From NCBI GenBank assembly GCA_963804265.1, contig CAWDPZ010000005.1, positions 6,799 through 70,798 on the forward strand: a stretch of 64,000 nt of DNA. The letters run 5' to 3'. The notes beneath the pieces are model-generated. The model ran no database searches. It was not told the origin of the DNA and worked only from the letters and a program-made list of their open reading frames with translations. Source of the stretch: an uncultured Acidimicrobiaceae bacterium. GTDB taxonomy: Bacteria; Actinomycetota; Acidimicrobiia; Acidimicrobiales; Bog-793. Numbering within the stretch: the stretch's first letter is position 1; each line of letters opens with the position of its first letter. Positions 4,282 to 62,051 of the stretch are shown here, piece by piece. A program made the translations under genes and the position numbers.

Positions 4282-4668
4282 TCATAAGGTCGTCTGTGGA
4301 CTGTGACCTCCGCCGCTGTCGGCGCTCGTCGAACGATCGGCGGCGTGAGCCTGTTCGGCGAGTTGCTTGATCGTTCGAAGTCGGCGGTCCCAACGGTTGG
4401 CGACCTCGGACAGCGCCCCGGTCGCTTCGGCTAGGCGCTGTTCGCGGACTTCGTAGCGGACCTCGCGGCCTTGTCGGTGTCCATCGACAAGGCCGACTCG
4501 CTGCAGGATCAGGAGATGTTTGGAGATCGCTTGTCGACTGACGGGCATCTCCGCCGTGAGGGTTGTCGCCGTGGCGTGACCCTGCGCCACGAGGAGGTCG
4601 AGCAGCTTCCGGCGCGTCGGATCGGCCATCGCTTCCCAGAGGTCGTCGTCATCGGACGAGGGTTTCAT
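4282..4668 (-). CDS. ArsR/SmtB-family transcriptional regulator
   Basis: 128 aa from ATG at 4668 (MADPTRRKLLDLLVAQGHATATTLTAEMPVSRQAISKHLLILQRVGLV). The ATGA overlaps the upstream SRPBCC gene stop. Confidence 0.85.
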   Translation of the reverse strand: MKPSSDDDDLWEAMADPTRRKLLDLLVAQGHATATTLTAEMPVSRQAISKHLLILQRVGLVDGHRQGREVRYEVREQRLAEATGALSEVANRWDRRLRTIKQLAEQAHAADRSTSADSGGGHSPQTTL

Positions 4669-5133
4669 GGTGACGATGCGTGTCCCGAGGCAAAGAGGGC
4701 CCGCAAGCGGTCTCCCTGGACCTGCCAGCCGTGACGGTGCTGTTCGAGGAACTTCTGTTTCTCGTCGTCGCCTATGTCCATTTGCTCGAGGCCGGACTCG
4801 ACGACGCGCAGTCGGGTCCGCTCCTCGCCGTCGGCGACGAGCGTGAACGTGACGAGCGTCGAGTTGGCTTCCGTCGCGTGCTCGCCGGGCGGATACACCC
4901 AACGATAAGAGAAACGGTGCGGACGATCGGCGGCGACGACCGTGATCCCGACGATGTTGGGGGCGTCCGTGTCTGCCCGGAAGGTGAGCGATCCGACTGC
5001 GCCGGGTCGCGGCTTCGAGGTCTGCCGCATCGCTGAACCACGTGCGGATCAGTTGCGGTTCGGTGATCGTGCGCCACACGACCTCCACCGGGGCTTCGAT
5101 CTCGATGTCGCGTTCGATCGTGTAGTCGTCCAT
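4665..5133 (-). pseudogene. SRPBCC/AHSA1-domain protein, one frame disruption (pseudogene or consensus error)
   Basis: The N-terminus MDDYTIERDIEIEAPVEVVWRTITEPQLIRTWFSDAADLEA (5133 frame) continues as PGAVGSLTFRADTDAPNIVG...GWQVQGDRLRALFA in the 4665..5030 frame. The junction is near 5005. Confidence 0.75.
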
Positions 5134-5237
5134 CGGCCCAGTCTCGTACAGAGGTCGGGTTCAGCGCTGCCCGGCGATGTTCTTCCGCGCATCGACGCTG
5201 AACCCGACGCAAGGCGGGTACGGAGGTGTCGTCCGCA

Positions 5238-5721
5238 TCACTCCGAGGTGTCGCGCGGCTCGTTCGGCCGGCCGCTTCCGGTCTCGAGGAACTGGCGCAG
5301 GCTGGGCATGAAGTGGTTCCAGCCGGCTCGGCACTGGTCGAAGCAAGCGAAGCGCGGGCCGCAGCCCGACGTGGCGGAACCCGACGGCGTGGGTTCCGTC
5401 GTCGTTCGCCCGCACCGAGAACGAGGGCCTCGTGCCGACCCAGTCCGGCTCGACACATGCGGTGACGGCCCAGGCGACTTCGCCTGTTCCCGGAGAGTGC
5501 TCGACCGTGAAGTCGACGAAGGAGGCGTCGCCGCCTGCGAAGAGTCGCACCTCGTCGCCGTGACGTTCGGAACGGGTCGCAGCGGTCCACCAACGGCTGA
5601 TCACGGCGTCATCGGTCAGGGCCGCGAGGATCTGGGGCAGCGGAACGTCCACCTGCATGCCATAGGTGTAGTCGTCTGACGCTGCCGTGGCCGGAGGGGT
5701 GGAAGGCAAAGGTGTGGTCAT
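5238..5721 (-). pseudogene. Second SRPBCC/AHSA1-domain protein, one frame disruption
   Basis: ATG at 5721 has an AAGGAGAG RBS. The sequence MTTPLP...ILAALTDDAVISRWW...GFRHVGL then switches (near 5350-5360) to the 5238..5456 frame (FACFDQCRAGWNHFMPSLRQFLETG). Confidence 0.7.
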
Positions 5722-5846: not shown

Positions 5847-8383
5847 CTAGGCCTCCCGCAGCACCTCGGCGGGGTGACGACGGGATGCGATGGCAGCCGG
5901 CACGATCGCGAGCAGGTTGGCGAACGCGACCACACCTACCGCCAATAGGGCGACGATCGCGGCCGGGACCACCGCCACCGGTACGGCGCCGAGGTTCAAG
6001 ATGAACGGGTTCCAGATGCCGGCGCCGACGGCGAGCCCGGTCGGCACGCCGAGGCCGATCCCGATCAGGGCGACCGTCGTCGCCTGCCAGCACACCGCCG
6101 TGCCGACCTGGATGCGCACGAAGCCCAACACCTTGAGGAGAGCAATCTCACGTCTGCGTCGTACGACGCTCACGAGGAGGAGGTGCGCGAGGGTGGCCGC
6201 TCCGAACAGGGCGAGCATGACGCCGAGGAAGGCCGGGAAGTTGACGGCCTGGCCGAAGTTCACGAGGTTGACCGGCACGGTGAGCACACTCAGGTTCTGG
6301 GCGAGTTGCCGCTCGAGCGTCGCCTTGGCGGCTCTCCCCGCCGCGTCCGGGGCAGTCGCGATCGCCATGCCCCAGTTCGCATAGCCCGCGAGACCGGAGC
6401 TTCGCGAAGAGGCTCTTGATGCACGGCCCCGAGGCCGGACCCGTCGGACATGCAGCGACCGCTGCCGCGTGGAGTGGGAGCACGGCTCCGACGCCGATAC
6501 CGCCGGGACTGAGGTTGGGCGGAAACGCCATGGAACCGACGACGGTGAACTCACTCGTGCGCGAATTGCCCGACGGCCCGATCACCGACAGCGAGACCCT
6601 GGAGCCGACGTGGGCGTGCGCGGAAGACAGTGTCTGGGTTCCGAGGGCGATCTCCCCGTCGCCGCGCGGGTAGCGCCCGTCGATGAGGGAGAAGACCAGG
6701 GGCCCCTTGCCCACCTCCACGAACGTCGCCTGCACAGGGGAACCGTTGACGTTGACGTACTTGCCGTTGATCCCGTAGGTGATCCTCGTCACGGCGGGGT
6801 CCGAGGCGAACTTTGTCACCACTCCTGTGACCTGCCGGTACGTCATGCCGCCCACGTCCACCTGCCAGCCGAGCCCGTAGAGCCTCGGCGTGGCCAGCAG
6901 GTTGGACAGGCTCGCACCGAATACGGTCGTCGCCACGAGGGCGGCGACGGCGACGACCGCGCCCGCGAGCGCGGTCGCAACCGGCACGCTCGAACGCCCC
7001 CGTCCCCGCTCGAGGGCATGGCGTGTCCCGATCAGGATGCTCGGCGGGGCGCCGGTCTCGGCGAGTGCCCGGACGACCCGTCGAAGGGCCGTGGACGGCG
7101 GGTCGGTCATCGCTGCGCAGCGTTGCGCGCACCCGGGAGTCTCGCCACGAAGGGTAGGCGGCGAGCAGCAGGACGACGGCGACAATCGCCACCGTGCCGA
7201 GGCCGAAGACGAGCGTGTCGAAGAGGAAGCCCTCGGTCGGCTCGGCCGCGCGGGCCTCGCCCACCGGCGTCAGCGGCGAGACCGCGACGGCGAAGGCGAG
7301 CGCGCCGAGCATGCCTGTCACCCCGATCACCGCCGCGGAACACACCGAGACCGAAGAGCTGGGCCGGACGAAAGCCGAGCGCCGAGAGCGTCGGATACAT
7401 CTCGCGCTCGACGATGCTTTGGCGCGACAGCGCCTGGCCAACCAAGGCGATCCCCGCCAGCCCCGCCAGAAAGGGCGAAGAGCCACCACCCGATGGCCTG
7501 GGGACGGATCGACCCTTCAATGGCGGTGATCTGGGCGTCCTCGCTCTGGGGGTAGACGAAGTTGCCACCGGAAAGAGGGATGTGGTTGACGGCGTAGGTG
7601 AAGCGCGGAAGGTCGGCTGCGCCGTGGACGAGGCGCACCATCGCGAGGGAACCGGTGACGACGGTGCGCCCGAGCGTGCGGTCGAAAGCTGGGCTCGTGA
7701 AAATCGAGAAGCTGGGGCTGCTCGAGGGAAAGTCGAGCATGCTCGTCTCGAAGCCCACGATGCGAAAGCTGACGAGGGGGCCGTGCGGTGTCGGTGTTCC
7801 GTTGCTGGCGTAGACGGCCTGGCGCTGGGAAGGCGCGTAGAGGGGCACGGTGACGACTGACCCGAGATGGAGGCCGAACTGCTGCTGCATCGAGAAGCCC
7901 GCGAGCGCCTCGAACCGACCGACCGGCAGCCGTCCACCGATCAGCTTGACTATCTCGGCCCGTCGAGGCGCGGGAAGGCTCGAAGACACCGAGGTCGTTC
8001 CCGGGTAGAAATTGCCCGTTCACGACCACATTGCCGTTTGCATAGAAGGTGCTGGTCGACATCGATCGCACGTCGCCCATGTGGGCGATGCTCCCCGGGA
8101 TCGAGGGGGTCGAGGAGAAGAGGCCGGCGTCGAAGCCGTAGCGCGAGACGAACTGAGGAAACGCCGACGAGGTCCGCCGTGCCGCGGACACACCGGCGAG
8201 CACGGTTCCGCCCACGAGCGCAATCAGAACCGCCAAGCGCGACCCATGCCCCGAGCCGACGGCGAACTTCGGTGCGAAACACGATCCGGATGCACCGCAT
8301 CTGGCCACCCCCGCACCCAAGTATGTCTGCTGCATCGGTTGTCGGGCAGTGTGGTAACGCCGAGAACTCGGTCGTGCTAGCAC
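5847..8383 (-). pseudogene. Large double-FtsX-domain ABC transporter permease (about 830-845 aa), at least 5 frame disruptions
   Basis: The protein can be followed through ORF-track pieces 7517..8383, 7327..7989, 7107..7937, 6551..7489, 6148..7185 and 5847..6554. Junctions lie near 7980, 7470, 7340, 7125 and 6410. The C-terminal FtsX motif is EIALLKVLGF. An alternative start is ATG at 8335. No partner ATPase gene is adjacent. Confidence 0.75.
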
Positions 8384-9015: not shown

Positions 9016-10210
9016 CTAAGGCTCTGTCGCCGACCGTGCCCGGCCTGTGGCGGGAAGACCGAGCTCGGCACGGATCGCCTCGGTGTGCTGCCCGAGCGAG
9101 GGCACCGGCTTCATCGGGGTCTCCCGTCCGTCGACGATCACGGGAGCCTGCAGGGCGTGGAAGGTCCCTGCAGGCGAGTCGACCTCGAGCCATCTGTGCC
9201 TCGCCGCGAGCTGTGGGTGGTCGAACAGCTCCACAGGAGAGCGCAGTCGGGCGTTCGCGATGCCAACGGAGTCGAGGAGCGCCACGACCTCCGAGGCGGC
9301 GAGGTCGGCCAGGGATCCCTCCACGATCGACCGGAGCTCCGCGTCGTGCTCGACCCGGTCGGTGTTGGTCGAGAAACGGGCGTCGGTGGCAAGACCGGGG
9401 CTCCGCAGGACCTTCTCGCAGAACACCGCCCACTCCCGTTCGTTCTGAATCCCGATGAACACCTCGGTCCCGTCGGAGGTGGCGTAGGCGCCGTAGGGGG
9501 AGATCGAGGCGTGTCGGGAGCCTGTCCGGCGCACGGGGCGTTCGCCATAGCCGTAGTAGTAGGCGGGCTGGCTCATCCACTCGCCGAGCGCATCGAGCAG
9601 CGAGATCTCGAGGTTCGTGCCGAGCCCGGTCCGCTCGCGCTCGTAGAGAGCGGCGAGTATGCCGCTGTAGGCGTACATCCCGGCCGAGATGTCCGCCACC
9701 GAGATGCCGACCTTGACCGCCTCCTCGGGTGTTCCCGTCACGGCCAGCACGCCCGCTTCGCACTGCACGAGGAGGTCGTAGGCCTTCTTGTCGCGATAGG
9801 GACCGTCCGAGCCGTAACCCGAGACCGAGCAGGTGATCAGCCGTTCGTGCCGCTGCCGCAGTGCCGCGTGCCCCGAGCCCGAGGCGGTCGGCCGCACCGG
9901 GGGCGAGGTTCTGGATGAAGACGTCGGCCCGGTCGATCAGCGCGTCGAGCACCGCGCGGTCGTCGGGACCCTTGAGGTCGAGCTCGATGCTCTCCTTGCC
10001 CCGGTTCAACCAGACGAAGTAGCTCGACTGGCCGAGGACGGAATGGTCGTAGTCGCGGGCGAAGTCGCCCGTGCCCGGCCGCTCGACCTTGATCACCCGC
10101 GCGCCGAGATCGGCGAGCTGGCGGGTGGCAAAGGGTGCCGCGACGGCCTGCTCGAGCGCGACGACGGTGATCCCGCCGAGGGTGCCCGCCGGTGGCCGAG
10201 CCGCGCTCAT
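9016..10210 (-). pseudogene. Family III (CaiB/BaiF) CoA-transferase, one frame disruption
   Basis: The 8984..10210 frame (GITVVALEQAVAAPFATRQLADLGARVIKVERPGTGD...NLAPGAADRLGLG) joins the 9016..9897 frame (HAALRQRHERLITCSVSGYGSDGPY...). The junction is at the CCCC run 9871-9874. Removing one base restores RLGLGHAALRQRH. Confidence 0.85.
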
Positions 10211-10216: not shown

Positions 10217-11373
10217 TCAGCTGAGCGGGTTGCGCTGGATCAGCTGGCGGGCGATGACGTTGCGCTGGATCTCGTTCGTCCCTTCGCCGACGATCATGAG
10301 CGGGGCGTCCCGGAAGTACCGCTCGACGTCGAATTCGGTCGAGTACCCGTAGCCGCCGTGGATCCGCATGGCGTCGAGGGCGATCTCCATCGCCGTCTCC
10401 GAGGCGAAGAGCTTCGCCATGCCCGCCTCGAGGTCGGCGCGGGCGCCGGAATCGTACCGCCGCGCCGCGTACAGGACGAGCTGGCGGGCAGCCGTCAGCT
10501 TCGTCGCCATGTCGGCGAGGTAGTTGCCGATCGACTGGTGCTTCCAGATCGGCTTACCGAAGGCCTCTCGTTGTTGTGCGTAGCGAAGCGAGTCCTCGAG
10601 GGCGGCGCGGCCGACGCCGAGCGCACGCGATGCGACCTGTATGCGGCCGATCTCGAGGCCGCGCATCATCTGGGCGAAGCCGTGTCCCTCCTGCCCGCCG
10701 AGGAGGCAGGACGCGTCGACGCGCAGCTCGTCGAAAGCTATCTCGCAGCTCTCGACGCCCTTGTAGCCGAGCTTCGGAAGGTCGCCGCGAGACGCTGAAG
10801 CCCGGGCCCTTCTCCACGAGCAGGATGCTGATGCCCCGGTGCGCCGGCTCCGCCGTCGGGTCGGTCTTGCACAAAAGGGCGATGAGCTCGGAGCGACGGG
10901 CATTGCTGATCCAGATCTTCGACCCGTTTATGACGTAACGGTCGTGGTCGCGGATCGCCGTCGTCCTGATCGCCTGCAGGTCCGAGCCGCCGCCGGCTTC
11001 GGTGAGGGCCATGGTCGCCCGGAGCGCGCCGGTGGACATCGCCGGCAGGTAGCGGTCCTTTTGCGCCTCCGTGCCGTGGTCGAGCGAGCAGCTTGGCGAC
11101 GACGGTGTGGCCGCCCATCGCTCCGGCGAGGCTCATCCAGCCCCGGGACAGCTCCTCGGTCACGAGGGCGTAGCACGAGGTGCTCACGCGCACGTTCCCC
11201 CAGGGCTCCGGGATGGCCAGCCCGAAGATCCCGAGCTGTTTCATCTGCTCGATGAGCGCTTCGGGATAGGTGTTGGCGTGCTCGAGCTCCTGCACGACCG
11301 GCAGCACCTCGCGGGCGACGAAGAGCCGCACGACCTCGACGATCGCCTGCTCCTCGTCGCTCAGCTCGTCCAT
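10217..11373 (-). pseudogene. Acyl-CoA dehydrogenase, two frame disruptions
   Basis: Three pieces are involved: 10738..11373 (N-terminus), 10554..11039 (ALTEAGGGSDLQAIRTTA...INGSKIWISNA) and 10217..10903 (...YSTEFDVERYFRDAPLMIVGEGTNEIQRNVIARQL). Junctions lie near 11090 and 10800. Confidence 0.85.
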
Positions 11374-12597
11374 CGCCCTCCAGTCGCAGCCGACGACCTA
11401 GCGGGGACGTGCTCGCGCAGCACCTCGACCGCATGTTCCCACGTCCAGCTCGATCTCTCGAGGTCGAGGCCACGGGTGCAGTCGGCGAGCTTGGCAGCGA
11501 GATCGTCGCGTCCGGCGGCCTTCTGCGGCGAGCCCGGAGGGAACCTCTGGCTCGCCGAGAGCACCGTGCCGTCGGTGATCTCCACCTCGGCGGTGAGCCT
11601 GCCGGAGAGCAGGTCGGTCCCGCCCGGCTCGAGGTCGACCTCGACCATCCCCATGATCTCCCGCGCCTCGTGCCTCGCGTACCGCGGCGTCGGTGAAGCA
11701 GTCGAGTCCCTGGTGGGCGTCGAGGAGCGCCGTGGCGGCCGCGTACTCGATGCTGAACTTGCCTTCCAGCCCCGTCGTAGGGGCGTGGTGGATCAGCGGC
11801 TCCACGGTGGAGGCGGCGGTGTGCAGCACGATCCGCACGACGTCACGCCAGTCCTCCACCTCGCCGGCGAGCCCGGCGAGGGCGCTGATGGGCCGCTGCA
11901 GCGCATAGCAGCAGGGGTAGATCTTCGTCGCCAGGCCTCCAGGAACAGCTGGTCCGCAAAGGTCCAGAGCCGCCGGGTCACCGCCGACGAGGCGCATCCA
12001 CACCTCGAGGGCGGAAGGATCTCCGCGGGCTCCGTCGCCGGCGAGCCTCGCCGCGCGCATCCCCGCCTCCACCGCGAAGCCGACCTGGAGCGCCTTGCCG
12101 TCGGTGCCGAACGACCGCTGCACGCCACCGGCGGCCGGCACCGAGAGGGCGATCGCCGCCGCGGTCTGCTCGGGATCGAGGCCCCAGGCGACGGCCGCAC
12201 CCGCGGCCGCCGCAGGCGCCCCGGCGGTGCAGGTCGCGTGCCACCCGGCCGAGTAGTGCGCCCAGCCGAGGGCGTTGCCGAGCCGTGCCATCACGCCTGC
12301 GGCCGCGAGGTAAGCCCTCGCGCCGCCCCCGGCGGCGAGGGCCGTCGGCACGCAGACGGCGCTGACGTGCGTCGTCGAGGGCACGTGGAGGTCGTCGTAG
12401 TCGAGGACGTGGGCGGCGACGGCCCAGCGCGGTCCGTCGTCGAACCAACGCGTCAGCTCGACGAGCGGGTCTGATCTCGCGGCGAGCATCACCGCCAGCG
12501 AGTCGCGAAGCGACCGGTCGGCGAGCTCGCAGTCGGCCGCACCGGGCCGGAGGTCGTGTGCCCACTGGGCAAGCGCCTCGGCCGGCGTGGTGCTCAA
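11361..12597 (-). pseudogene. MmgE/PrpD-family protein, one frame disruption
   Basis: The 11398..12597 frame is good through ...FSIEYAAATALLDAHQGLDCFTDAAVRE. It then switches near 11670 to the 11361..11654 frame (MGMVEVDLEPGG...PPGSPQKAAGRDDLAAKLADC). Confidence 0.8.
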
Positions 12598-50969: not shown

Positions 50970-50994
50970 GCCTCACCACATCCTCGTCACGTCG

Positions 50995-52305: not shown

Positions 52306-52344
52306 TCGAGCCCTCGCAGTCGGCGCCGAGCTCTGTCGTAGCGG

Positions 52345-53460
52345 TCACTTGTCGGCCCGGAACTCAGCGATGAAGTCTTCGTCGAGCTCCCAGCCGAGCC
52401 CCGGCCCATCGGGCAGCTTGAACAGCCCGTTCTCGAGCTCCGGCCTGTTGGCGAGCATGCGCCAGAAGATGGGGTCGCGCTCGGGGTGGAACGCCTCGGC
52501 GTAGGTGCCGTGCGGGATCGAGGCGAGGAGATGGCTCGAGAGGTGGGCCTCCTCGTGATGGGCCATCTCCACTCCGAAGCTCATCGCCATCTGCGCCACC
52601 CTGCGCCACTCCGTCGGTCCGCCGCCCCAGGAGGCGTCGAAGTTGGACACGTCGATCGCCTCGCCGGTCATGAGGTCCCGCATCGCCACCCGATTGATCT
52701 CCGTCTGGCCGGCGGCGACCGGAACGCCCGTCTTCAGGCGGACGGTCTGCATGGAGCGGCGGTCGTCCGGCCACTGGCACGGCTCCTCGAACCAGCGCAG
52801 CTGGACGAAGTCTCGCGTCCCCTCGACGAACTCGATCGCCTGGGAGGCCGTCCAGCCCTGATTCGCGTCGACGAGGAACACGAAGCCCGGGCGGGCCGTC
52901 TTCACGGCGCGGCGGAGCCGCTGCAGGTCCTCCTCGGGCGAGGCGCCGCCGATCTTGAACTTCATGCCGACAAAGCCCCCGTCGGAGAAGAAGCTGACCT
53001 CCTTCTCGATGTTGGCGGGATCGTCGGTGTAGTAGCCGCCGATGCCGATCATGGGGATGTCGGAGCGGAACCCGCCCCAGAGGCGGTAGAGCGGCGTCTC
53101 GAGCGCCTTGCCGACGGCGTCCCAGAGGGCCGTGTCCACGCAGCCGATCGCCTGCATGGCAAAGCGGCGGTCACGCAGCTGGTCGAAGGTGATGCGGCGC
53201 ATGGCCTCCCAGCAGTCCTCTATAGCAAAGGCGTCCCGTCCCACGAGTAGAGGCGTCAGCTCGTCGCGCACGATCGTCATGATCGCGGCCTGCTCGTCGT
53301 CGGCATCCGCGTTGTACGACTCGCCGACGACGCCCTCCTCGGTCGTGACGCGGGTGATGATCGTGCATCGGCGCGGCATGCGGTAGTAGCTGCCGCGGTA
53401 GAGCCGCGCCAGGGTGACGCGCACCGGTACGGTCTCGATCGATCGGATGCGAAGTCGCAC
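52345..53460 (-). CDS. Enolase-superfamily enzyme (mandelate racemase/muconate lactonizing type)
   Basis: I prefer the GTG at 53460, preceded by GGGGGG (VRLRIRSIETVPVRV...). The ORF track extends it to a TTG at 53565. Motifs are AIGCVDTALWDAVGK, FKIGG, LVDANQGW, WFEEP and AAGQTE. The gene is intact. Confidence 0.85.
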   Translation of the reverse strand: MRLRIRSIETVPVRVTLARLYRGSYYRMPRRCTIITRVTTEEGVVGESYNADADDEQAAIMTIVRDELTPLLVGRDAFAIEDCWEAMRRITFDQLRDRRFAMQAIGCVDTALWDAVGKALETPLYRLWGGFRSDIPMIGIGGYYTDDPANIEKEVSFFSDGGFVGMKFKIGGASPEEDLQRLRRAVKTARPGFVFLVDANQGWTASQAIEFVEGTRDFVQLRWFEEPCQWPDDRRSMQTVRLKTGVPVAAGQTEINRVAMRDLMTGEAIDVSNFDASWGGGPTEWRRVAQMAMSFGVEMAHHEEAHLSSHLLASIPHGTYAEAFHPERDPIFWRMLANRPELENGLFKLPDGPGLGWELDEDFIAEFRADK

Positions 53461-53584
53461 TGCCCCCCAACTTTCGTATCGTTCCGTGTCCTCTGGCGAG
53501 CGGAGATCCTGTCCGCCGTCACGCACTTTCACACTGGCGAGGATGGCACTGACTTTCCTCGCCAAATTACTGGTATCGATTCCG

Positions 53585-53614
53585 AGACTAGTCGGCCCAG
53601 AGATGCGTCGTCAA
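53585..53614 (-). promoter_or_regulatory. Promoter candidate (minus strand) TTGACG-N18-TAGTCT
   Basis: The reverse complement of 53609-53614 is TTGACG and that of 53585-53590 is TAGTCT. The site is about 120 nt upstream of the enolase GTG start. Confidence 0.3.
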
Positions 53615-53682
53615 CCAGCCAGCCCTGCCTTCAGCTGCCCCGTCGCGAAACCGAAACCTTGGATTCCGTCCGTTCCGAGCAA

Positions 53683-53701
53683 GGGCATGAAACGTTTGCC
53701 C
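53683..53701. promoter_or_regulatory. LacI-family operator-like site GGGCA-TGAAACGTTTGC-CC (perfect AAACGTTT core)
   Basis: Read directly. The 12-mer TGAAACGTTTGC (53688-53699) matches its own reverse complement at 10/12 positions and is centred on CG, as in LacI/PurR/CcpA-type operators. It is the only AAACGTTT I noticed in the window. Confidence 0.45.
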
Positions 53702-53894
53702 TGCAGCCGTCAGGGCGAGACTCCGGCGTGTTGCCATCGCCAAGTCACCTTCGGCTCAGGCCGGTGACGCGGTATGCGGCCGGCCGCGATCGGAATTCTC
53801 GCGGACCGGGAGTTTCGGACCGGAGCACCTCTTTGCGGGGCGGCGGGGCCTACGAACAGGTGCTGGAACACCTCCGGCCACCATGAGCGACGGC

Positions 53895-53911
53895 GAACCG
53901 GCACCCGGTTC
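53895..53911 (+). other. Perfect hairpin GAACCGG-CAC-CCGGTTC followed by a pyrimidine/T-rich stretch
   Basis: Read directly inside the approximately 800-bp noncoding gap. Its function is unknown (weak terminator or leader structure). Confidence 0.25.
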
Positions 53912-54148
53912 TGCATCCTCTTTACTCCGGGCCGACCGGAGGATCCCCTGCGCGCCAGCCGCCCGGAGCTCGCCAGGTCTCAATCCTTTCGCCTGAGCAC
54001 CCCTGTTTCCAAGGCTTCTAGCAGCTCAAGATCCGGCTCCTGCCGTCGCTCAGCGCCTTCGCCCAGATCGGCGGGAAGATCCAGGCCCGTCGCCCGGGGA
54101 GCGGGGAGCGGTTCGGGGCCGATACGCTTCGGCGACCGATCCCGGTTC

Positions 54149-54177
54149 TTGACGTCTCCGTGTGGTCCAGATACAGT
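54149..54177 (+). promoter_or_regulatory. Promoter candidate TTGACG-N17-TACAGT
   Basis: This is the best sigma-70/SigA-like match I found in the window. It lies about 90 nt upstream of the bicupin GTG start. Confidence 0.45.
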
Positions 54178-54268
54178 TTGGCCACAATCGATTCCGGTCC
54201 CGAGGGGGGGAGTCGTCGGCGGCGCTGGGGAGATCAGCGCCCCGACGATGCGGAGAAGGAGGCTGCAC

Positions 54269-55207
54269 GTGACGGACAGCAAGCTTGATTGGGAGACGCT
54301 GACGCAGTGGTCCAAGGGCTTCCCCTTCCGTGGGAACAAGCAGGTCCCGACGGTGATACCCCGGCGGTCCATCCCGTTCTCGTCGTGGGGGCCGGACCCC
54401 GACGGCTGGCACCGCACGCCGTGCTGGATCTACACGAGCACCCCGCAGATCGGTTTCGTGTGCACGATGTCGGTCGCGCCCGGCGACTTCTTCGAGAACG
54501 GCAACCACCCGAACGTCGAGACCTACTACCAGATGTCCGGCACGCTGCATGTGCAGAACGCCGACACCGGGCAGGTCATCGAGGTGCGTCCCGGCGACGG
54601 CTTCGTCATGCCGGCCTTCGAGTACCACATAGGCCACAACTTCTCGACCGAGGAGTCGGTCACCTTGTGCTGCGTTCCCGGCGAGTCGCACACCGAGGAG
54701 TTCCACAAGAACCCGATCCTGGCGGAGAACTACGCCCGCGAGCCCGTGACGCTGTTCGGGAAGTCCAACTCGAACTCCGGGTTCCCGTCCCAGCTGCGCC
54801 ACCTCGCGGAGTGGCCTTCCATGAACCCGAACTCGCGCGGCAAGAGCGACTTCGTGAGCGTGCCCCGCGCCGACTGGCTGAACGTCGTGCTCGGCGCGGA
54901 CCCTCGTCACGCGCTGCTGGCGTCGTTCTATTACAGCTCGCCGCAGCTGGCCGCCTACAGCGTCACGGTGCCGCCGAACCGTATCGGCCAGGCACACGCC
55001 ATCAACGGCGAGACGGTGATCTACGTCAAGGAGCTCGACGTGATCATCGACGTGCTGGAGACCGGCGAGAGTCTCTACGCCGAGGAAGGCGACGCCGTCT
55101 TCATTCCGCCAGGCGTCAAGTTCCAGTACCAGAACCGGCGCGACAAGACCGTGGAGGTGATGGTGTTCAGCTCGCCGTGGGACCCGGCGACTTTGGTCCC
55201 GAGTTGA
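54269..55207 (+). CDS. Hypothetical protein, probable double-cupin fold
   Basis: A GTG at 54269 lies 6 nt after AGAAGGAGG (54254-54262). The two cupin-like halves are GDFFENGNHPNVETYYQMSGTLHVQN...GDGFVMPAFEYHIGHN and IGQAHAINGETVIYV...GDAVFIPPGVKFQYQN. The ORF-track extension to 53774 is rejected. Confidence 0.55.
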   Translation: MTDSKLDWETLTQWSKGFPFRGNKQVPTVIPRRSIPFSSWGPDPDGWHRTPCWIYTSTPQIGFVCTMSVAPGDFFENGNHPNVETYYQMSGTLHVQNADTGQVIEVRPGDGFVMPAFEYHIGHNFSTEESVTLCCVPGESHTEEFHKNPILAENYAREPVTLFGKSNSNSGFPSQLRHLAEWPSMNPNSRGKSDFVSVPRADWLNVVLGADPRHALLASFYYSSPQLAAYSVTVPPNRIGQAHAINGETVIYVKELDVIIDVLETGESLYAEEGDAVFIPPGVKFQYQNRRDKTVEVMVFSSPWDPATLVPS

Positions 55208-55297
55208 TTCAGCGACGGCGGAGGCGCCGCCGTGGGCCGCAGGCTCAGGGCGCCGCACCGGCAACAAAGCATCTCTTTCAACTACCAAGGGGGGTTT

Positions 55298-56881
55298 ATG
55301 GAAAATCTGTCACGTAGGGAGTTCCTCGGCTACGGCGCGGCGGCGGCGGCTGGTGGGGTCGCGCTCGGTCTCGGTGCTCCGGCGCTCGGAGCCGGCGCGA
55401 CCGAGCGCCACCAGGCTGAGGCTGAGGAGCCCCATGCCGGCAACACCGGCTCGATCACGGTCGGGATGCGTGCCATCCTCACCAGCTTGAGCCCGTTCGC
55501 CATCCAGGGCTACCAGTGGTCCCAGATGATGGGATTCGTCCTCTACGACCCGCTCGTGCAGGTCATGGCGGACGGCACCCTGGCACCTGTCGCGGCGGCG
55601 TCGTGGGACACCTCGAGCCCGACCCAGACGATCATCCACGTGCGGCCCGGGATGCACTTCCACAACGGTGCGGAAGTCACCGCGAAGGACGTCGCCTACT
55701 CGATCGCCGCCCGCTGCGACCCGAAGGTCATCGCGGTCACGAGCGGTCGGCCGGTGATGTCGCCCAAGCAGTGGGCGGGCGTCACGACGCCGAGCAAGTA
55801 CACCGTCGTCGTGCACACGACCTCCCGCGTTCGCCTGCTCGAGAACCCGCAGCCGATCCTCGTCGTGCCCTACAACGCCTTCAAGCTCTTCAACGTCAAC
55901 ACCCAGGACGTCGGGTCCGGGCCGTTCACGCTCGAGAACTTCGTGAGCGGCAGCAGCCTGGCCGTGGCGGCGAACCCGAACTACTGGGGCGGCGAGCCGA
56001 AGATCCGCACGCTGACCTTCCGGCTCTTCAACGACGTCTCCGAGGAGGCGCTCAACATCCGCTCCGGCGAGGTGCAGGGCATCTACGACGTCGACCCGCT
56101 GAACTTCAAGCAGGTCTCGGGCGTGCCGAACACCAAGGTCATCCGCGAGGCGACGTACGCCAACTGGTGGATCATCCAGATGGGCCAGCCGCCGTTCGAC
56201 AACCCGGCGGTGCGCAGAGCCATCCGCTATTGCTTCAACATGCCGCTCATCAACAAGACGGCTTTCGGCGGCCTCGGCACCCACCCCTGGGACGGGTTCG
56301 GCTTCTACCCGCCCTCCTGGCAGATCAGCCAGAAGTACACGGGCGGCTACGACCCGGCCAAGGCGGCGTCGCTGCTCAAGGCGGCCGGTGTCAAGACGCC
56401 GTTCAACGTCGGGCTGATCGGCCTGAACAACTACCAGGACTCGATCAACGAGGGCCAGGTCATCCAGCAGGGGCTGAAGGCGGCCGGGCTCAACGCCACC
56501 TTCCAGGCCCTCACCGACGGGGACTGGCTGTCGTCGACCTACGGCAAGGGCAACTGGACGGGTCTCGCCTTCAACGCGGGCAACATCCCGTTCCCGTTCC
56601 TCAACTTCTGGGACTACCTCGTCGACCCCTCGAGCCTGCTGAGCGCCTACAAGAAGGGCTATCCGAACCCGACCGTGGCGGCGCTCTACAACAAGGTGGA
56701 GGCCGGCACGGATCCGCAGGAGCCGGCGCTGCTGAAGCAGGCCCAGACGATGATCCTGAACGACGCCGTCGTGTACTTCATGTTCGGCGGACCGGTCAAC
56801 ATGATCCTGCCCAACAACGTCCACGGTGTGATCGTGAACGGATACGGTGACGTGAGGTGGCACAAGGCTTCCTTCTCGTAA
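55298..56881 (+). CDS. ABC transporter substrate-binding protein, family 5 (peptide/nickel type), Tat-type signal
   Basis: ATG at 55298 follows GGGGGG. MENLSRREFLGYGAAAAAGGVALGLGAP is followed by an intact family-5 body. Confidence 0.9.
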   Translation: MENLSRREFLGYGAAAAAGGVALGLGAPALGAGATERHQAEAEEPHAGNTGSITVGMRAILTSLSPFAIQGYQWSQMMGFVLYDPLVQVMADGTLAPVAAASWDTSSPTQTIIHVRPGMHFHNGAEVTAKDVAYSIAARCDPKVIAVTSGRPVMSPKQWAGVTTPSKYTVVVHTTSRVRLLENPQPILVVPYNAFKLFNVNTQDVGSGPFTLENFVSGSSLAVAANPNYWGGEPKIRTLTFRLFNDVSEEALNIRSGEVQGIYDVDPLNFKQVSGVPNTKVIREATYANWWIIQMGQPPFDNPAVRRAIRYCFNMPLINKTAFGGLGTHPWDGFGFYPPSWQISQKYTGGYDPAKAASLLKAAGVKTPFNVGLIGLNNYQDSINEGQVIQQGLKAAGLNATFQALTDGDWLSSTYGKGNWTGLAFNAGNIPFPFLNFWDYLVDPSSLLSAYKKGYPNPTVAALYNKVEAGTDPQEPALLKQAQTMILNDAVVYFMFGGPVNMILPNNVHGVIVNGYGDVRWHKASFS

Positions 56882-56898
56882 GCACGCTGCAGTAGGAC

Positions 56899-56935
56899 GG
56901 CCACCTCTCCTGCGGGGGAGGTGGCCGTTTCGATT
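56899..56935 (+). terminator. Intrinsic terminator/attenuator hairpin GGCCACCTC-N10-GAGGTGGCC + GTTTCGATTTCG
   Basis: 9-bp perfect stem (56899-56907 / 56918-56926) followed by a T-rich tract. It lies between the binding-protein and permease genes. Confidence 0.55.
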
Positions 56936-57010
56936 TCGTCCTCGGGGTGCTCCGGTCACGGCAAGGACCGGGCGCCCCGGCAGTATTGGAAACAGCCGAT
57001 AAGGGGTGGA

Positions 57011-57979
57011 GTGGCAAAGATCCTCGCGAGCAAGCTCCTTCAGCTCGTTCTTGTCCTGCTTGCCATCTCGGCCATCACGTTCTTCCTCCTGAGCGCGCTC
57101 CCCGGCAACGCCGCGCTCTACCGGATCGGGCCCCTGCCGAGCTACACGCCCCAAGAGCGCGCCGCGCTCATCGCCAAGCTGTCGGCGCAGCTGGGCCTCA
57201 ACAAGCCGCTCATCGTGCAGTACTGGATCTGGCTCACCCATGCCGTCCGCGGGGACTTCGGCCTCACGACCCAGGGCGAGCAGGTCACGACGCTGCTCGG
57301 CTCCTCGGTCTGGGCGAGCGTGGAGCTGGCGATCGCCGGCCTCGTGCCGAGCCTCATCGCCTCGTTCGCCGTGGCGCTCTGGGCGTTCCGGACGAGGTGG
57401 CGCCGAATGCAGGCGCTCGTGCAGGGCATCATGTCGACCCTCTTCGTGATCCCGAGCTTCTGGCTGGGGTTCCTCCTCGTCTACCTGCTGGCGGTGAAGA
57501 CCCAGTCGTTCCCGGCATCCGGCTTCGTGCCTCTCGCCCAATCGGCGTCCGGCAACTTCTCCCACCTCGTGCTGCCGGCGCTTACGCTCGCATGCCCGCT
57601 CACGGCCCTCTTCTTCCGCTACCTGCTGGCGGGGCTCGAAGAGGCCGAGATGGGGGCCTTCGTCGTCGCGGCGCGGGCCAAGGGCATCTCGGACCGCGCC
57701 GTCGCCTACAAGCACGTGCTCCCGAACGGCTTCCTGCCCACGATCACGATCGTCGGCCTCGCGACCGGTTCGCTGCTCAGCTCGCTCGTGATCGTCGAGT
57801 CGGTGTTCTCCTGGCCCGGGCTCGGGTCGCTCCTCGTGCAGTCGGTGACGGTACGCGACTTCAACACCCTCGTGGCGATCGTGCTCTTAACGGCGGCCGT
57901 CTTCGTGTTCACCTCGATCGTCGTCGACCTCATCTACTGGTTCGCCGACCCGCGGACCCGCCGTCCGGGGCAGGTGTAG
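57011..57979 (+). CDS. ABC transporter permease (DppB/OppB type)
   Basis: A GTG at 57011 follows AAGGGGTGGA. The sequence VAKILASKLLQLVLVLLAISAITFFLLSALPGN...ARAKGISDRAVAYKHVLPNGFLPT...WFADPRTR is intact. Confidence 0.9.
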   Translation: MAKILASKLLQLVLVLLAISAITFFLLSALPGNAALYRIGPLPSYTPQERAALIAKLSAQLGLNKPLIVQYWIWLTHAVRGDFGLTTQGEQVTTLLGSSVWASVELAIAGLVPSLIASFAVALWAFRTRWRRMQALVQGIMSTLFVIPSFWLGFLLVYLLAVKTQSFPASGFVPLAQSASGNFSHLVLPALTLACPLTALFFRYLLAGLEEAEMGAFVVAARAKGISDRAVAYKHVLPNGFLPTITIVGLATGSLLSSLVIVESVFSWPGLGSLLVQSVTVRDFNTLVAIVLLTAAVFVFTSIVVDLIYWFADPRTRRPGQV

Positions 57980-57982
57980 CCG

Positions 57983-58879
57983 GTGTCCCTCGCCTCGATC
58001 GCCGCCCCCCGCAAGGTTCTCGCCCCCGTCCGGGCCTTCTTCCGTCTGCCGAAGGCGCTCGTCGCGGCTGTCATCCTGCTCTTCCCGTTCGCCCTCATGG
58101 CCGTCATCCCCAGCCTCATCGCGCCCTACAGCCCTTACACGACCGTCGGGATCCCGCTTTCTGGACCGAGCGGCAGCAACTGGCTCGGGACCGACGAGAT
58201 CGGGCGCGACGTGCTGAGCCGCGTCATCTTCAGCGCCCAGAGCGACGTCGTCATCAGCCTCGCCGCCACAGCGATCGCCTTCATCGTCGGGTCGCTCATC
58301 GGCGTCTTCCTCGGCTACCGGGGAGGCTGGGTGGACACGGCCGGGACGCGGGTCGTCGACGTCGCGCTGGCCTTCCCGGCCATCGTGCTCGCCCTGTTCC
58401 TCATCGCCATCTTCGGCCACGGCGAGCTCGTCGAGATCGTCGCCATCGCGGCGGTGATGATGCCGTCCATGGCACGCTTTGCCCGCGGCACCAGCCTCCT
58501 TTTGAGAAACCGTGCCTACATCGAGTCGAGCGAGATCCTCCGTGCATCCCGTGCCTATGTGATCCGCCGGCATCTCGTGCCGAACGCCCTGCGCTCTCTG
58601 CTCGTGGCGGCGTCTGTCCTCGGGGCGAGCGCCGTGCTCATCTCCGCCGCGCTCAGCTACCTCGGCCTGGGCGTGACCCCTCCCACCCCGAGCTGGGGCA
58701 CGATGCTTTACAACGCCTTCCAGAACGTGTTCCAGGCGCCCATCTACGGCGTGGCCCCGGGCGTCTGCATCACCGTCCTCGCCTATGGCTACATGCTCCT
58801 CGGGCGCGGCCTCGGTGAGCTGCAGGGTCGCACAGGGCGCCAGGAACGCGCCTTTCGGACCTCGGTGACCCGGGTATGA
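57983..58879 (+). CDS. ABC transporter permease (DppC/OppC type)
   Basis: Intact 298-aa ORF (NWLGTDEIGRDVLSRVIF...RAYIESSEILRASRAYVIRRHLVPNA). Confidence 0.9.
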   Translation: MSLASIAAPRKVLAPVRAFFRLPKALVAAVILLFPFALMAVIPSLIAPYSPYTTVGIPLSGPSGSNWLGTDEIGRDVLSRVIFSAQSDVVISLAATAIAFIVGSLIGVFLGYRGGWVDTAGTRVVDVALAFPAIVLALFLIAIFGHGELVEIVAIAAVMMPSMARFARGTSLLLRNRAYIESSEILRASRAYVIRRHLVPNALRSLLVAASVLGASAVLISAALSYLGLGVTPPTPSWGTMLYNAFQNVFQAPIYGVAPGVCITVLAYGYMLLGRGLGELQGRTGRQERAFRTSVTRV

Positions 58880-61005
58880 CCGGGCCCGGGGCCACCGGCC
58901 TCCTCGAGACCACCGGTCTCCTCGAGGTGACCGGGCTCACCGTCGACTACCTCGGCCGCGGCGATGCCGTGCGCGCCGTCGACGACGTCTCGCTCGAGCT
59001 GCCCGCGGGCGGCCGCCTCGGCATCGTCGGCGAGTCGGGGTCGGGCAAGACGACGCTCGGCCTGGCCCTCGCCGGGCTGCTCCCGCGCACGGCACGCGTC
59101 GTCTCGGGGAGCATCACCCACGAGGGCAAGCAGATCGTGGGGCTTCGCGAGCGCGCGCTCCGCGACATCCGCGGCAAACAGGTCTCGGTCGTGTTCCAGG
59201 ACGCGAAGACGGCTCTCGACCCGGTCAGGACCATCGGCTCGCAGATCGGAGAGGCGGTCCGCGCCCACAGCTCGGCCAGCCGCCAGGAGGCGCTCGCCGT
59301 CGCGCTCGGTCTGCTGCGCGAGGTGGAGCTGCCCGATCCCGAGAACCGCCTGCGCCAGTACCCCCACGAGCTCTCCGGCGGCCAGCGCCAGCGGGCGATG
59401 ATCGCCATGGCACTGGCTGGCCAGCCGAAGCTCCTCGTCGCCGACGAGCCGACGAGCGCCCTCGACGTCACGACCCAGGCGAAGATCATCGACCTGTTGC
59501 ACCGGCTCGGCGAGGAGCGGGGCATGGCGACGATCCTCGTCACCCACGACCTCGGCGTCGTCGCAGGCTTCGCCGAGACGGTCCTCGTCATGTACGCCGG
59601 TGCCGTCGTCGAGACCGGCCTCGTCGGCGACATCTTCGGGCGGCCCTCCCACCCCTACACACGGGCGTTGATCGAGGCCGTCCCCTCGCTCACAGGTGCC
59701 CGCGTGCGCCGGCTCCCCTTCATCCCCGGGGGGCTCCCGCGCAGCAGCTCGGCTGCGGCCGGCTGCCGTTTCGAGCCCCGATGCTCGGTCGGCCAGGGCA
59801 ACCCGCGTTGCCAGGCGTCCGAGCCCGAGCTGAGCCTCACCGCCTCAGGCACGGTGGCGGCCTGTCACTTTCCCGGTCGACGGGCCGCTGCGGGTCGGCT
59901 CGCCTGCCGGGGCGGTCAAAGAGGCCCAGGTCGCCCAGAGCTCGGCGGGGGATGCTGCGCCCGCCGGCCCGGCTCCGGCGCTCCTCGAGGTGACCGACGT
60001 CGTCAAGACCTTCCGGGTCACCCGCGGCGGGAGCTCCACCGTGCGCCTGCGGGCGGTCGGGGGAGTGTCGCTCGTCGTGCGCAAGGGCGAGTCGTTCGGC
60101 ATCGTCGGCGAGTCGGGCTCGGGCAAGACCACCCTCGCCCGGATCCTCGTCGGCCTCGAGAGCGCCGATTCCGGCACGCTGAACTTCTCGGGCGAGGAGG
60201 CAGTGGCGGCCTCGAGCGCCGCCCGGCGCCGCCGCTGCGTCGCGGCCCGGCGAGATCCAGATGATCTTCCAGGACCCGGGCGACTCCCTCGACCCGCTCA
60301 TGACCGTCGAGCATCTCATCGCGGAGCCGCTCGAGATAACCCGCGGCGGGCGGGCCCACCGGTACCGCAGCCGAGGTGGCCGGGGCGCTCTCGGAGGTCG
60401 GCCTCCCGGAGACCATGATGAGCCGGAGGGCGAGCCAGCTCTCGGGCGGCCAGCGCCAGCGGGTCGCCATCGCCCGGGCGCTCACGACCAAGCCGCGGCT
60501 GCTCGTGGCCGACGAGGCGGTGGCTTCCCTCGACATGTCGGCGAGAGGCCAGGTGCTCAACCTCCTCTCCGACGTCCAGGACGAGGGCGACCTCACCTGC
60601 ATCCACATATCGCACGACCTCTCCATGGTGCGCAACGTCTGCGAGCGTGTCGCGGTCATGCACGCCGGCCGCATCGTCGAGGTTGCTGACGCCGAGGAGC
60701 TGTTCACGAGCCCCCGCCACCCCTACACCGCCGGGCTCATCTCGGCCATCCCCGTCCCGGACCCGACCTACGAGCGGACCCGCACGCGGATCGAGGTCGT
60801 GGGGGAGCTGCCGGATCTCACCCATCGCGTCGTCGGGTGCGCCTACAGGTCACGGTGCCCGAACGCCCAGGAACGCTGCGCGGCCGAGGACCCGCCCCTT
60901 GTGGAGTGGGACCCGGCGCACTCCTGGGCCTGTCACTATCCGGAGCCGCCGAAGCTGGAGCTGGCAACGGTTCCCGCCCCGGTGACGGACGCGACGTCAG
61001 CATGA
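58876..61005 (+). pseudogene. Fused double ABC ATPase (GsiA/YejF-like, about 710 aa), at least 3 frame disruptions
   Basis: Domain 1 is intact (GESGSGKTT, LSGGQRQR, LLVADEPTSALD, ...ACHFP). There is no stop before domain 2, but a shift near 59870 leads to a linker (VDGPLRVGSPAGAVKEAQVAQSSAGDAAPAGPAPA). Domain 2 follows (LLEVTDVVKTF...GESGSGKTT), with shifts near 60240 and 60350, then 60376..61005 (LSGGQRQRVAIARAL...LLVADEAVASLD...RHPYTAGL). Confidence 0.8.
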
Positions 61006-61012
61006 ACGGGAG

Positions 61013-62051
61013 GTGGACCTGGTGAGTGGTCTCGGTGCGGTCACGGTCCTCGGTGTCGTCGACGCCGACAACCTCGGACTCGTGCTCCCCCACGAGCACC
61101 TGACCGTGGACAACCGGGTGCATCTCGCCACGGGCCCGGAGTACGACCCTGACGCGGCCCTCACCCTCAAGACCCTGCCCCAGGCCCGGCTCGCGCCGCG
61201 CTCGATCGCCGAGAACATCGTCATGGACGACGACGCCGCGTCTGCGGCCGCCCTCCTCCGCTACCGCGAGGCCGGCGGGGGCACGATCGTCGAGCTGACG
61301 CCGACCGGCATGGGGCGGGACCTTGCCCGTCTTCGCGCCATCTCGTCCGCCACGGGGGTGAACGTCGTCGCCGCGACCGGCTACTACGTCGAGCGGGCCC
61401 ACAAGGGCCGGGTGGCGGGCCGGAGCGAGGAGGACCTCGCCGCCGAGTTCGTCGCCGAGCTCACTGCCCCGGTCGACGGGGAGTCGCGCTGCGGAGTCAT
61501 CGGCGAGATCGGCATCTCCCCGCCGCCCCATCCCGACGAGCTCCTCGTCCTCAGCGCGGCCCTGCGGGCCCAGGACCTCACGGGCGCACCGATCTGGATC
61601 CACGTCACCGGCCGGCGCCCGGTGCCGCCCCTGCTGGACTTCCTGGAGCGGACGGGCAGGGACCTGAGCCGCGTCGCCGTCTCGCACATGGACTACGACC
61701 TCGACGACCTCGGCGACCACGTGCGGGCGCTCCGGCTCGGGCTCTACGTGGAGTTCGACCTCTTCGGGTTCCCGATCTGGAACGCCGGCAATTTCCTCCA
61801 CATGCCGACCGACACCCGGCGGGTGCAGGCGATCATGGACCTGGCCGGTCGCGGGTATGCCGGCACAGCTGTTGATGAGCCACGACGTCTGCATGAAGAT
61901 GCAGCTGCCGGACTGGGGCGGCTTCGGCTACGCCCACATCCCGAGCAACGTGCTCCCGATCTTCGAGCTCCTCGGCGCCGAGCCCGGCCTCGCCGGCCAG
62001 ATCACCCGGGACAACCCGCGGCGCCTCCTCTGCTGGGCCGAGACATCGTGA
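61013..62051 (+). pseudogene. Phosphotriesterase-family (PTE/PHP-like amidohydrolase) protein, one frame disruption
   Basis: GLVLPHEHLTVD...GGGTIVELTPTGMGRD...VVAATGYY...GVIGEIG...IWIHV...HMD shifts near 61862 into 61857..62051 (QLLMSHDVCMKMQL...GGFGYAHI). The likelier start is GTG at 61022, 8 nt after GGGAGG. Confidence 0.8.

Follow-up and report, generated by a model that had tools for sequence, protein, structure and literature searches.

Gene-fragmenting indel errors in long-read assemblies have reportedly been pointed out by Watson and Warr 2019, and the usual consensus error of Nanopore data is the homopolymer deletion. In reductive genome evolution with mass pseudogenisation, as in Mycobacterium leprae or recent host-restricted pathogens, many genes are interrupted while gene order is kept. 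Systematic Nanopore basecalling errors tied to methylation gather at one short sequence motif. Long-read (Nanopore or PacBio) assemblies and metagenome-assembled genomes (MAGs) carry errors that are of the indel type only and split genes across reading frames (e.g. PMC8103633; the Kastor tool, PMC12007338). These errors are private to the assembly, can be mended against relatives, and spread truncated proteins into databases. Among Nanopore MAGs, frameshift pseudogenes stand out more in contigs of low coverage (PMC8103633).

Here, we analysed the whole 64-kb stretch of DNA presented above, hereafter the window, in which about half of the genes are interrupted by small frame changes. The lesions of the window resemble the long-read errors in being indel-only and private, in splitting genes across frames, in being mended against relatives and in the spread of truncated proteins into databases, and are unlike them in being dominated by non-homopolymer single-base insertions with a bias towards CGCG-rich sequence. 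Very probably, the frameshifts are consensus errors of a deposited assembly built from noisy long reads, and do not represent real gene decay.

Frame-breaking indels in the window

Indels were called by nucleotide alignment of the window to contigs of 94-98% identity drawn from seven other datasets (JGI 3300036894, 3300037093, 3300014502, Ga0181519 and 3300041809; ENA ERZ28653740; Logan SRR11569230). This alignment to close relatives identified 67 window-specific indels of a length not divisible by three, which break 32 of the 59 genes (Table 1), in line with a preliminary description of at least 57 events in 31 of about 60 genes. Single-base insertions prevail (45 events), followed by deletions of one (14) and two bases (5) and insertions of two bases (3), with insertions representing 72% of all events. 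A further +1 at 34829, in the class II aldolase, is common to a long-read sister contig and was left out of this count.

Frame-breaking lesions in the window genes are always 1 or 2 nt long, and larger deletions and mobile elements or insertion sequences are absent among them. No true nonsense codon was found in 11,393 codons, and in silico removal of the indels leaves every gene open throughout, without internal stop, as expected from the earlier statement that only frame changes are involved. The single TGA that was flagged (1624-1626) is located upstream of the 111-aa start used in most relatives. The net shift is zero modulo three in 5 of the 15 genes hit more than once, which equals the chance expectation. 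Non-coding and coding sequences are struck alike. Several 1-nt indels were also observed at 2697-3047, in non-coding or doubtful sequence.

Altered or truncated products stand in the public record for the 143,381-bp NCBI/ENA contig (P0079, 293 aa; P0206, 82 aa; P0252, 173 aa; P0068, 514 aa), and the lesions are therefore present in the deposited sequence.

Table 1. Stretches free of frame-breaking indels and broken genes of the window, with the position of each frame-breaking indel.
Feature	Coordinates	Strand	Indels and products
Longest stretch free of frame-breaking indels	50129..59868		six intact genes, clean 5' part of Transket_pyr and start of fused ABC ATPase
Second clean stretch	30015..35352		DLH, RidA, FAA hydrolase and SBP intact
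HTH_3 (HipB-like) gene	1284..1632	-	+1 at 1537; public product 82 aa, 111-115 aa in ~20 relatives
Polyketide_cyc2/AHSA1 gene	4665..5133	-	+1 at 5012; norm 155 aa in 40 cluster members
Hypothetical 160-aa gene	5238..5721	-	+1 at 5349
FtsX permease	5847..8300	-	+1 at 6387, 7080, 7472, 7980, 8236; -2 at 7338; public fragment 173 aa, 816 aa in relatives
CoA-transferase III	9016..10210	-	+1 at 9867-9869; public fragment P0079 293 aa, 397 aa in relatives
Acyl-CoA dehydrogenase	10217..11373	-	+1 at 10786, 11086
MmgE/PrpD (a)	11370..12597	-	+1 at 11677
Hydantoinase-like amidohydrolase	13969..15467	-	+1 at 14456, 15429
HpcH/HpaI-like aldolase	15606..16446	-	-1 at 15749; +1 at 16226, 16328
FAD_binding_2 gene	16680..18098	+	+1 at 16823, 17277, 17773; net +3
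FAD_binding_3 monooxygenase	18272..19548	+	-1 at 18833
CoA-transferase III (b)	19592..20870	+	+2 at 20067, -2 at 20148, +2 at 20440, +1 at 20497, +1 at 20779
MmgE/PrpD (b)	20863..22271	+	-1 at 21083, +1 at 21882, -1 at 21954, -1 at 22121, +1 at 22261
IclR regulator	22297..23082	-	-1 at 22372, -2 at 22500; net -3
Cyclase, densest gene	23215..24030	-	-2 at 23218, +1 at 23308, -1 at 23382, -1 at 23595, +1 at 23623, +1 at 23649, -1 at 23660, -1 at 23887
Flavodoxin_2 gene	24391..25055	+	-1 at 24436
ABC permease (BPD_transp_1)	25082..26096	+	+1 (A) at 25321
ABC ATPase 2	28006..29018	+	-1 in G4 run at 28611-28614
Zn alcohol dehydrogenase	29142..30115	-	+2 (CG) at 30014; also in-frame -3 at 29428
Class II aldolase	34810..35489	+	+1 at 35353
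MFS transporter	36366..37884	+	+1 at 37794, giving a false C-terminus; 514 aa vs 505
GFO_IDH_MocA oxidoreductase	38165..39132	+	+1 at 38192, 38615
Short-chain dehydrogenase 1	39214..39989	+	+1 at 39382, 39444
Neutral ceramidase-like gene	41237..42714	+	+1 at 41417, 42638
MR/MLE enolase-superfamily gene	43670..44798	+	+1 at 44491
Short-chain dehydrogenase 3	44833..45587	+	-2 (CG) at 45057, +1 at 45455
AP_endonuc_2 (b)	45700..46552	+	+1 at 45864, +1 at 45869, -1 at 46070
LacI regulator	47424..48499	-	+1 at 48415 (codon 26); single reference
E1 dehydrogenase alpha	48934..49961	-	-1 at 49229; single reference
E1 beta (Transket_pyr)	49958..50954	-	+1 at 50128
Fused double ABC ATPase, 708 aa in relatives	58876..61005	+	+1 at 59869, 60237, 60369; net +3
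Phosphotriesterase-family gene	60989..62051	+	+1 at 61862

Comparison with relatives and sister contigs

Comparison of the same loci in relatives, as proposed in the preliminary description, found none of the 67 disruptions: wherever a short-read-type contig of the same species-level group spans a site, the indel is missing. At 48 sites, two to four independent contigs all lack the indel; the remaining 19 are covered by one short-read-type contig, and at 17 of these a long-read sister contig also lacks it. For the cyclase, the absence of indels is unanimous in four independent short-read-type contigs. The relatives carry full-length genes with complete Pfam matches.

Two sister contigs from another sample (ERZ25039479 contig_36252 and contig_53887), both with Flye-style names, carry private coding indels of their own, 38 in the former and about 10 in the latter, mostly of one nucleotide and clustered. 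In contig_36252, 31 of the 38 fall within 10.4-12.6 kb (window coordinates). The genes hit by the sister-contig indels (GNAT, PFK, HTH_20, SBP, Htd2 and LacI) are unbroken in the window. The same kind of lesion is thereby present at other sites in the sister long-read contigs, and was found in none of the seven short-read-type datasets. It is probable that the window contig was made in the same way as these sisters.

Selection on broken and intact genes

Purifying selection acts alike on broken and intact genes. For the 32 broken genes pN/pS is 0.139, compared with 0.110 for the 27 intact ones (p = 0.12). Substitutions specific to the window lineage fall into synonymous, nonsynonymous and stop classes as 274:94:0 in the former and 286:99:0 in the latter (odds ratio 1.01). 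Where a gene has at least 2 events per kb, nonsynonymous differences are modestly more frequent (32% vs 23-25%), a rise that could come from accompanying substitution errors or from a slight relaxation. By a rough estimate, at most about 80 unconstrained substitutions stand beside the indels, placing the ratio of indels to substitutions near 1:1. In natural bacterial mutation spectra this ratio is roughly 1:10.

Distribution and sequence context

The events are patchy along the window, as the preliminary description had indicated, with a variance-to-mean ratio of 2.49 per 2-kb bin (p = 3e-5) and a longest clean run of 8,653 nt of coding sequence (P = 0.0014 for a uniform distribution). We found 20 events in 19.6-24.0 kb, where at least 14 had been claimed, and the alignment to relatives shows no frame-breaking indel in 30.1-34.8 kb or 50.1-59.9 kb, which agrees with the zero counts given for 30.1-34.8 and 51.0-58.9 kb. 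The zero count given for 1-4.6 kb was incorrect, since the HipB-like gene is shifted there. The stretch at 18-25 kb is deletion-rich, the type of indel changing there. Uneven density had been held against a uniform error process; it is no evidence against error, because the sister long-read contigs are equally patchy, with their patches elsewhere. The probable source of the patchiness is usable read depth or polishing that differs locally, over distances of about a read length (several kb).

Sequence context also shapes the events. CGCG is found within 6 nt of 18 of the 67 events (5.8 expected, p = 1e-5), and local GC (+/-10 nt) is 0.73 at events vs 0.69 at background sites, with no enrichment of GATC at events. 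All 2-nt events are slippage of short CG or GC repeats. Among the +1 insertions, the added base differs from both neighbours in 31 of 45 (69%), and 5 of 45 lie in runs of 3 or more vs 19% expected, showing no homopolymer concentration of the kind typical of Nanopore, 454 and Ion Torrent data; 6 of the 14 single-base deletions lie in such runs, compared with 13% of background bases, which is suggestive only. Errors appear to be biased towards very GC-rich, CGCG-containing sites, on top of the patchiness.

Four junctions had earlier been resolved to the nucleotide and tied to short G/C runs or a GCGCG context. All four are within 5 nt of the places given, but three are not changes in run length: at 9867-9869 one base is added 2-4 nt ahead of a CCCC run, at 38192 an A is added behind a G5 run that is itself unchanged, and at 24436 one base is lost between CC and GG. 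The fourth, placed at about 30017, proved to be an added CG in a CGCG repeat at 30014. With most insertions unlike both neighbours and few in runs, the events show no general tie to G/C runs.

Origin of the frameshifts

We attribute the indels to long-read consensus error because they are private and indel-only, selection on the broken genes is unrelaxed, and the sister contigs have lesions of their own. These findings support the reading favoured, though left unsettled, in the preliminary description. The window contig was most likely produced from noisy long reads of modest depth by a Flye-style metagenome assembly, in which residual 1-2 nt indels, chiefly spurious single-base insertions, would have outlasted polishing. 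Local usable read depth or polishing may have generated both the kb-scale patches and the change of indel type at 18-25 kb, and the bias towards CGCG-containing, very GC-rich sites would be superposed on this local effect. As a counterpoint, the spectrum (72% insertions, 69% of single-base insertions unlike their neighbours) differs from the usual Nanopore pattern of homopolymer deletion. A large soil MAG project has combined Flye with one Medaka round at a read N50 of ~6 kb (PMC12313526); its relation to the accessions studied here is a lead only.

Co-assembly of 95-98% identical strains might instead have misled the consensus caller, leaving indels at strain differences. Many closely related strains do occur in public metagenomes, and real indel and repeat-number variation exists between strains in intergenic regions. 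However, a mismatch lies within 2 nt of 13% of frameshift sites and 13.5% of random coding sites, and within 3 nt of 20% and 18%, respectively, and event density is unrelated to divergence per 2-kb bin (rho = 0.05). A mixed population is an unlikely source. About as unlikely is DNA modification at a CGCG-type motif that disturbs basecalling, so that errors mark modified sites. The enrichment of CGCG and the raised GC near events speak for it and recall the errors known at methylation motifs, but of the 644 CGCG sites just a few percent carry an event, the kb-scale patches do not follow from CGCG density (rho = 0.16, p = 0.39), the 2-nt slippage events fit plain context difficulty, and GATC is not enriched. 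We consider it equally doubtful that the CGCG bias, the patches and the deletion-rich 18-25 kb together express a real property of the DNA, such as CGCG modification or minority true indel polymorphisms.

Genuine, very recent pseudogenisation, in a lineage undergoing genome decay with real indels fixed in the population, is very improbable. The indels do exist in the deposited sequence, the most heavily struck genes are somewhat higher in nonsynonymous fraction, and selection could in principle have spared some operons. As in M. leprae, many genes are interrupted and gene order is kept; unlike in such decay, the window has no nonsense codons, large deletions or expansion of insertion sequences, and pN/pS is near 0.14, with synonymous to nonsynonymous changes at 3:1 in broken and intact genes alike. 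Moreover, no lesion is common to any of the 94-98% identical relatives, one 816-nt gene, only about 4% diverged from its relative, holds as many as 8 indels, the estimated indel to substitution ratio is far from the natural one, and the lesions of the sister long-read contigs are different ones in different genes. Programmed ribosomal frameshifting, transcriptional slippage or phase variation, for which nothing speaks beyond the presence of +/-1 shifts, is effectively refuted: no orthologue has the shifts, which share no conserved site or motif, lie in mutually unrelated contexts without slippery heptamer or long repeat tract, and number up to 8 in a single gene, and the base added by most single-base insertions matches neither neighbour.

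Implications

In this contig, half of the predicted proteins are truncated, fused or given false termini, and several of the faulty products have already entered public protein collections, among them the 82-, 173- and 293-aa fragments and the 514-aa MFS protein with its wrong C-terminus. Even without reads, assembly error can be told from decay by the sequence together with its public relatives, and useful tests are the privacy of lesions, an unchanged ratio of synonymous to nonsynonymous changes, and differing lesions in sister assemblies. The frameshifts are almost certainly not a real feature of this organism, and the finding is a data-quality warning rather than biology. Users of the genome bin should correct the frameshifts first, whether they reconstruct metabolism, count pseudogenes, estimate completeness or analyse gene families.

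Relatives of the contig and its public record

The window varies between 62 and 72% GC and holds ordinary metabolic and transport genes, among them peptide ABC transporters, CoA-transferases, MmgE/PrpD, dehydrogenases and two toxin-antitoxin pairs. Exact protein look-ups show that the public record, a single 143,381-bp NCBI/ENA contig, includes the window's intact proteins together with several truncated ones. Near-identical proteins bear names that indicate MAGs of Acidimicrobiales or Acidimicrobiaceae. Syntenic relatives with 94-98% DNA identity were obtained via exact-protein and peptide-pattern look-ups; one scan of species-representative genomes found no relative. The short-read-type set that served as indel reference comprises contigs from JGI 3300036894 (two contigs), 3300037093, 3300014502, Ga0181519 and 3300041809, from ENA ERZ28653740 and from Logan SRR11569230. 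Two further relatives, contig_36252 and contig_53887 of ENA ERZ25039479, bear Flye-style names and are referred to as sister long-read contigs. Taken together, these contigs cover the window almost fully. In the relatives that lack the window's indels, the genes have their full length and match Pfam families completely.

Frame-breaking indels in about half of the genes

At 70% GC, the simple form of the GC3 frame plot was too noisy. A GC3-based, seven-state Viterbi frame track was usable above ~66% GC but not in the first 5.9 kb, where GC is 62%; in this track, frame switches far outnumber genes. When probed with the relatives' proteins (TBLASTN), the same genes are split over frames, and each indel was positioned to the nucleotide by BLASTN alignment against the relatives. 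The final catalogue contains 67 window-specific indels of a length not divisible by three (45 of +1, 14 of -1, five of -2 and three of +2), which fall in 32 of the 59 genes at a rate of 1.17 per kb over 57.1 kb of coding sequence. These numbers match the preliminary description, which had counted by eye 31 broken genes out of about 60 and at least 57 events. The window's genes contain no true nonsense codon, and every gene reads through in silico once the indel bases are deleted or restored. Frameshifts are net-compensated in 5 of the 15 genes hit more than once, no more than chance.

Several candidates were left out of this count. L088, a sister long-read contig, was initially the sole reference for 1-10 kb and gave false calls: the apparent events at 1861, 4294 and 3427 proved to be its own errors once L090, a JGI contig covering the left end, was added. 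Three candidates at 12617-12666 are intergenic, 30344 adjoins a start codon, 48487 lies within a repeat, and 18434 and 34829 are common to the window and a sister long-read contig. At 34829, the window and the sister contig L087 have the same +1 relative to three short-read-type contigs, and the C-terminus of the ceramidase carries an independent +1 in each of the two (42638 in the window, 42646 in L087), within 8 nt; each case may be a site of systematic error or a genuine variant of the strains. Compared with L090, the window also has five or six 1-nt indels close together at 2652-3050; these were excluded as well, because it is doubtful that the stretch is coding (the L090 ORF there is 95 aa without a Pfam match).

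The lesions are almost certainly consensus errors

Four lines of evidence argue that these lesions are not real mutations, supporting the consensus indel errors favoured in the preliminary description. The first is privacy. Independent short-read-type contigs cover 48 of the 67 sites two to four times over, and every one lacks the indel; the remaining 19 sites have one such contig each, and at 17 of these sites the indel is missing from a long-read sister as well. The second is that the broken genes evolve as working genes, with a pN/pS of 0.139 against 0.110 in intact genes (p = 0.12). Substitutions private to the window lineage amount to 274 synonymous, 94 nonsynonymous and no stop in broken genes and to 286, 99 and none in intact ones (odds ratio 1.01; the gene list used for this test was an earlier one that counted two more small genes as broken). 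The third is the indel-only spectrum. Up to eight indels occur in a single gene of 816 nt that diverges from its relative by only ~4%; from mutation spectra, natural decay is expected to bring a far larger number of substitutions, along with larger deletions and some nonsense codons.

The fourth line comes from the sister long-read contigs, which carry 38 and ~10 private coding indels of their own, mostly of +/-1 nt and clustered. Most of those in contig_36252 (31 of 38) map to 10.4-12.6 kb of the window. The genes hit in the sister contigs (GNAT, PFK, HTH_20, SBP, Htd2, LacI) are intact in the window, and the short-read-type contigs showed no private lesions of this kind. Patchy, indel-only breakage is therefore a property of the kind of assembly and not of the loci. 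We conclude that the lesions are consensus errors of long-read metagenome assembly, the method that we infer for the window's own contig.

Similar products were seen in other contigs. The public protein collection holds a false Cyclase-IclR fusion protein of 491 aa from the sister contig L093 (6179-7654) and a PFK without its N-terminus from L088 (9602-10384; 260 aa instead of 350 aa). In L006, contig_4893 of ENA ERZ25039454 and a more distant relative (74-80% nucleotide identity), the locus at 11165-14509 has split genes for SBP (436 + 146 aa) and RidA (79 + 54 aa). ERZ25039454 and ERZ25039479 come from one series of ENA accession numbers, and the split genes suggest the same error process throughout that data set.

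Sequence context and patchiness of the errors

The preliminary description had linked the breaks to short G/C runs. This does not hold for insertions: only 5 of 45 lie in runs of three or more, and the added base is unlike both neighbours in 31 of the 45 +1 insertions (50% expected under random insertion). Homopolymers were rejected as a general cause. Single-base deletions are somewhat enriched in such runs, which contain 13% of bases but 6 of the 14 deletions. The eight 2-nt events all occur at GC-rich sites or in short repeats of CG or GC. CGCG occurs within 6 nt of 18 of the 67 events (5.8 expected, p = 1e-5), and local GC is 0.73 at events against a background of 0.69. The events favour very GC-rich, CGCG-containing contexts; an enrichment of GATC at events was rejected.

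Along the window, events are strongly clustered, with a variance/mean of 2.49 in 2-kb bins (p = 3e-5) and a longest event-free run that extends from 50,129 to 59,868 and includes 8,653 coding nt (P = 0.0014). A single change point fits best near 24.5 kb, where the rate falls from 2.0 events per kb on the left to 0.67 on the right, and the ratio of insertions to deletions is 9:13 in 18-25 kb against 38:6 elsewhere (p = 3e-4). The dense patch previously noticed at 19.6-24.0 kb contains 20 events, and the stretches described as free of breaks at 30.1-34.8 and 51.0-58.9 kb have none in the final catalogue; the low-GC left end, also given as free, has one event in 1-4.66 kb (1537, in the HipB-like gene). 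By bin, event density shows weak or null correlation with GC (rho = 0.34, p = 0.07), divergence (rho = 0.05) and CGCG density (rho = 0.16). Since these variables and closeness to strain SNPs fail to explain the kb-scale patches, the explanation left, and the probable cause, is that usable read depth or polishing differs from place to place over distances of about a read length. Published work on Nanopore MAGs finds that frameshift pseudogenes stand out more where coverage is low (PMC8103633), which fits an explanation by depth. A large soil MAG project used metaFlye and one Medaka round at a read N50 of ~6 kb (PMC12313526); ERZ25039454 and ERZ25039479 gave no match to paper text, and this project is a lead only.

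Other explanations were weighed against long-read consensus error. A consensus drawn from mixed strains is improbable, as it finds no support at individual sites and a proximity of events to SNPs was rejected. Marginally less probable is a contribution from a modification-linked error process at CGCG, which would leave the kb-scale patches unexplained. Real, very recent pseudogenisation is very unlikely, as it conflicts with all four lines of evidence. The one observation that points towards it is that nonsynonymous differences are modestly more frequent in the genes with the most hits (32% versus 23-25%), and accompanying substitution errors or misalignment beside indels would explain this equally well. 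Programmed frameshifting or phase variation is excluded, there being no conserved site or motif.

Strain variation and left-end genes

Both toxin-antitoxin pairs are located in the lower-GC (62%) left end of the window, at 1-2652. The segment with the TacA antitoxin (window 2341-2812) is present in L090 and absent from L088 (11007-11042); either the strains truly differ here or the segment was lost in the assembly of L088.

Toxin-antitoxin genes at the left end of the window
Gene	Position	Remarks
HipA	1-1284, cut by window start	Pair one, with HTH_3/HipB-like gene
HTH_3/HipB-like gene	1284-1632	Partner of HipA
GNAT acetyltransferase	1845-2381	Pair two, with TacA1
TacA1 antitoxin	2374-2652	Pfam PF08681, E = 1.5e-19

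Four intergenic arrays of tandem repeats, with a repeat unit of 15-21 nt, lie at 16581-16641, 29036-29157, 30244-30332 and 48509-48600. Copy number varies between the window and its relatives in three of the four arrays (all except 30244-30332), producing in-block alignment gaps of 12-39 nt. Compared with two JGI contigs, the window has a 21-nt in-frame deletion at 52277, which shortens the N-terminus of a CoA-transferase (436 aa versus 443 aa). This deletion looks like a real polymorphism, because lengths of 433, 436, 443 and 448 aa all occur in the 90% cluster of this protein.

Implications

The frameshifts are an artefact in the deposited sequence, and in practice they serve as a caution: about half of this contig's predicted proteins are wrong, and public protein collections already contain some of these.
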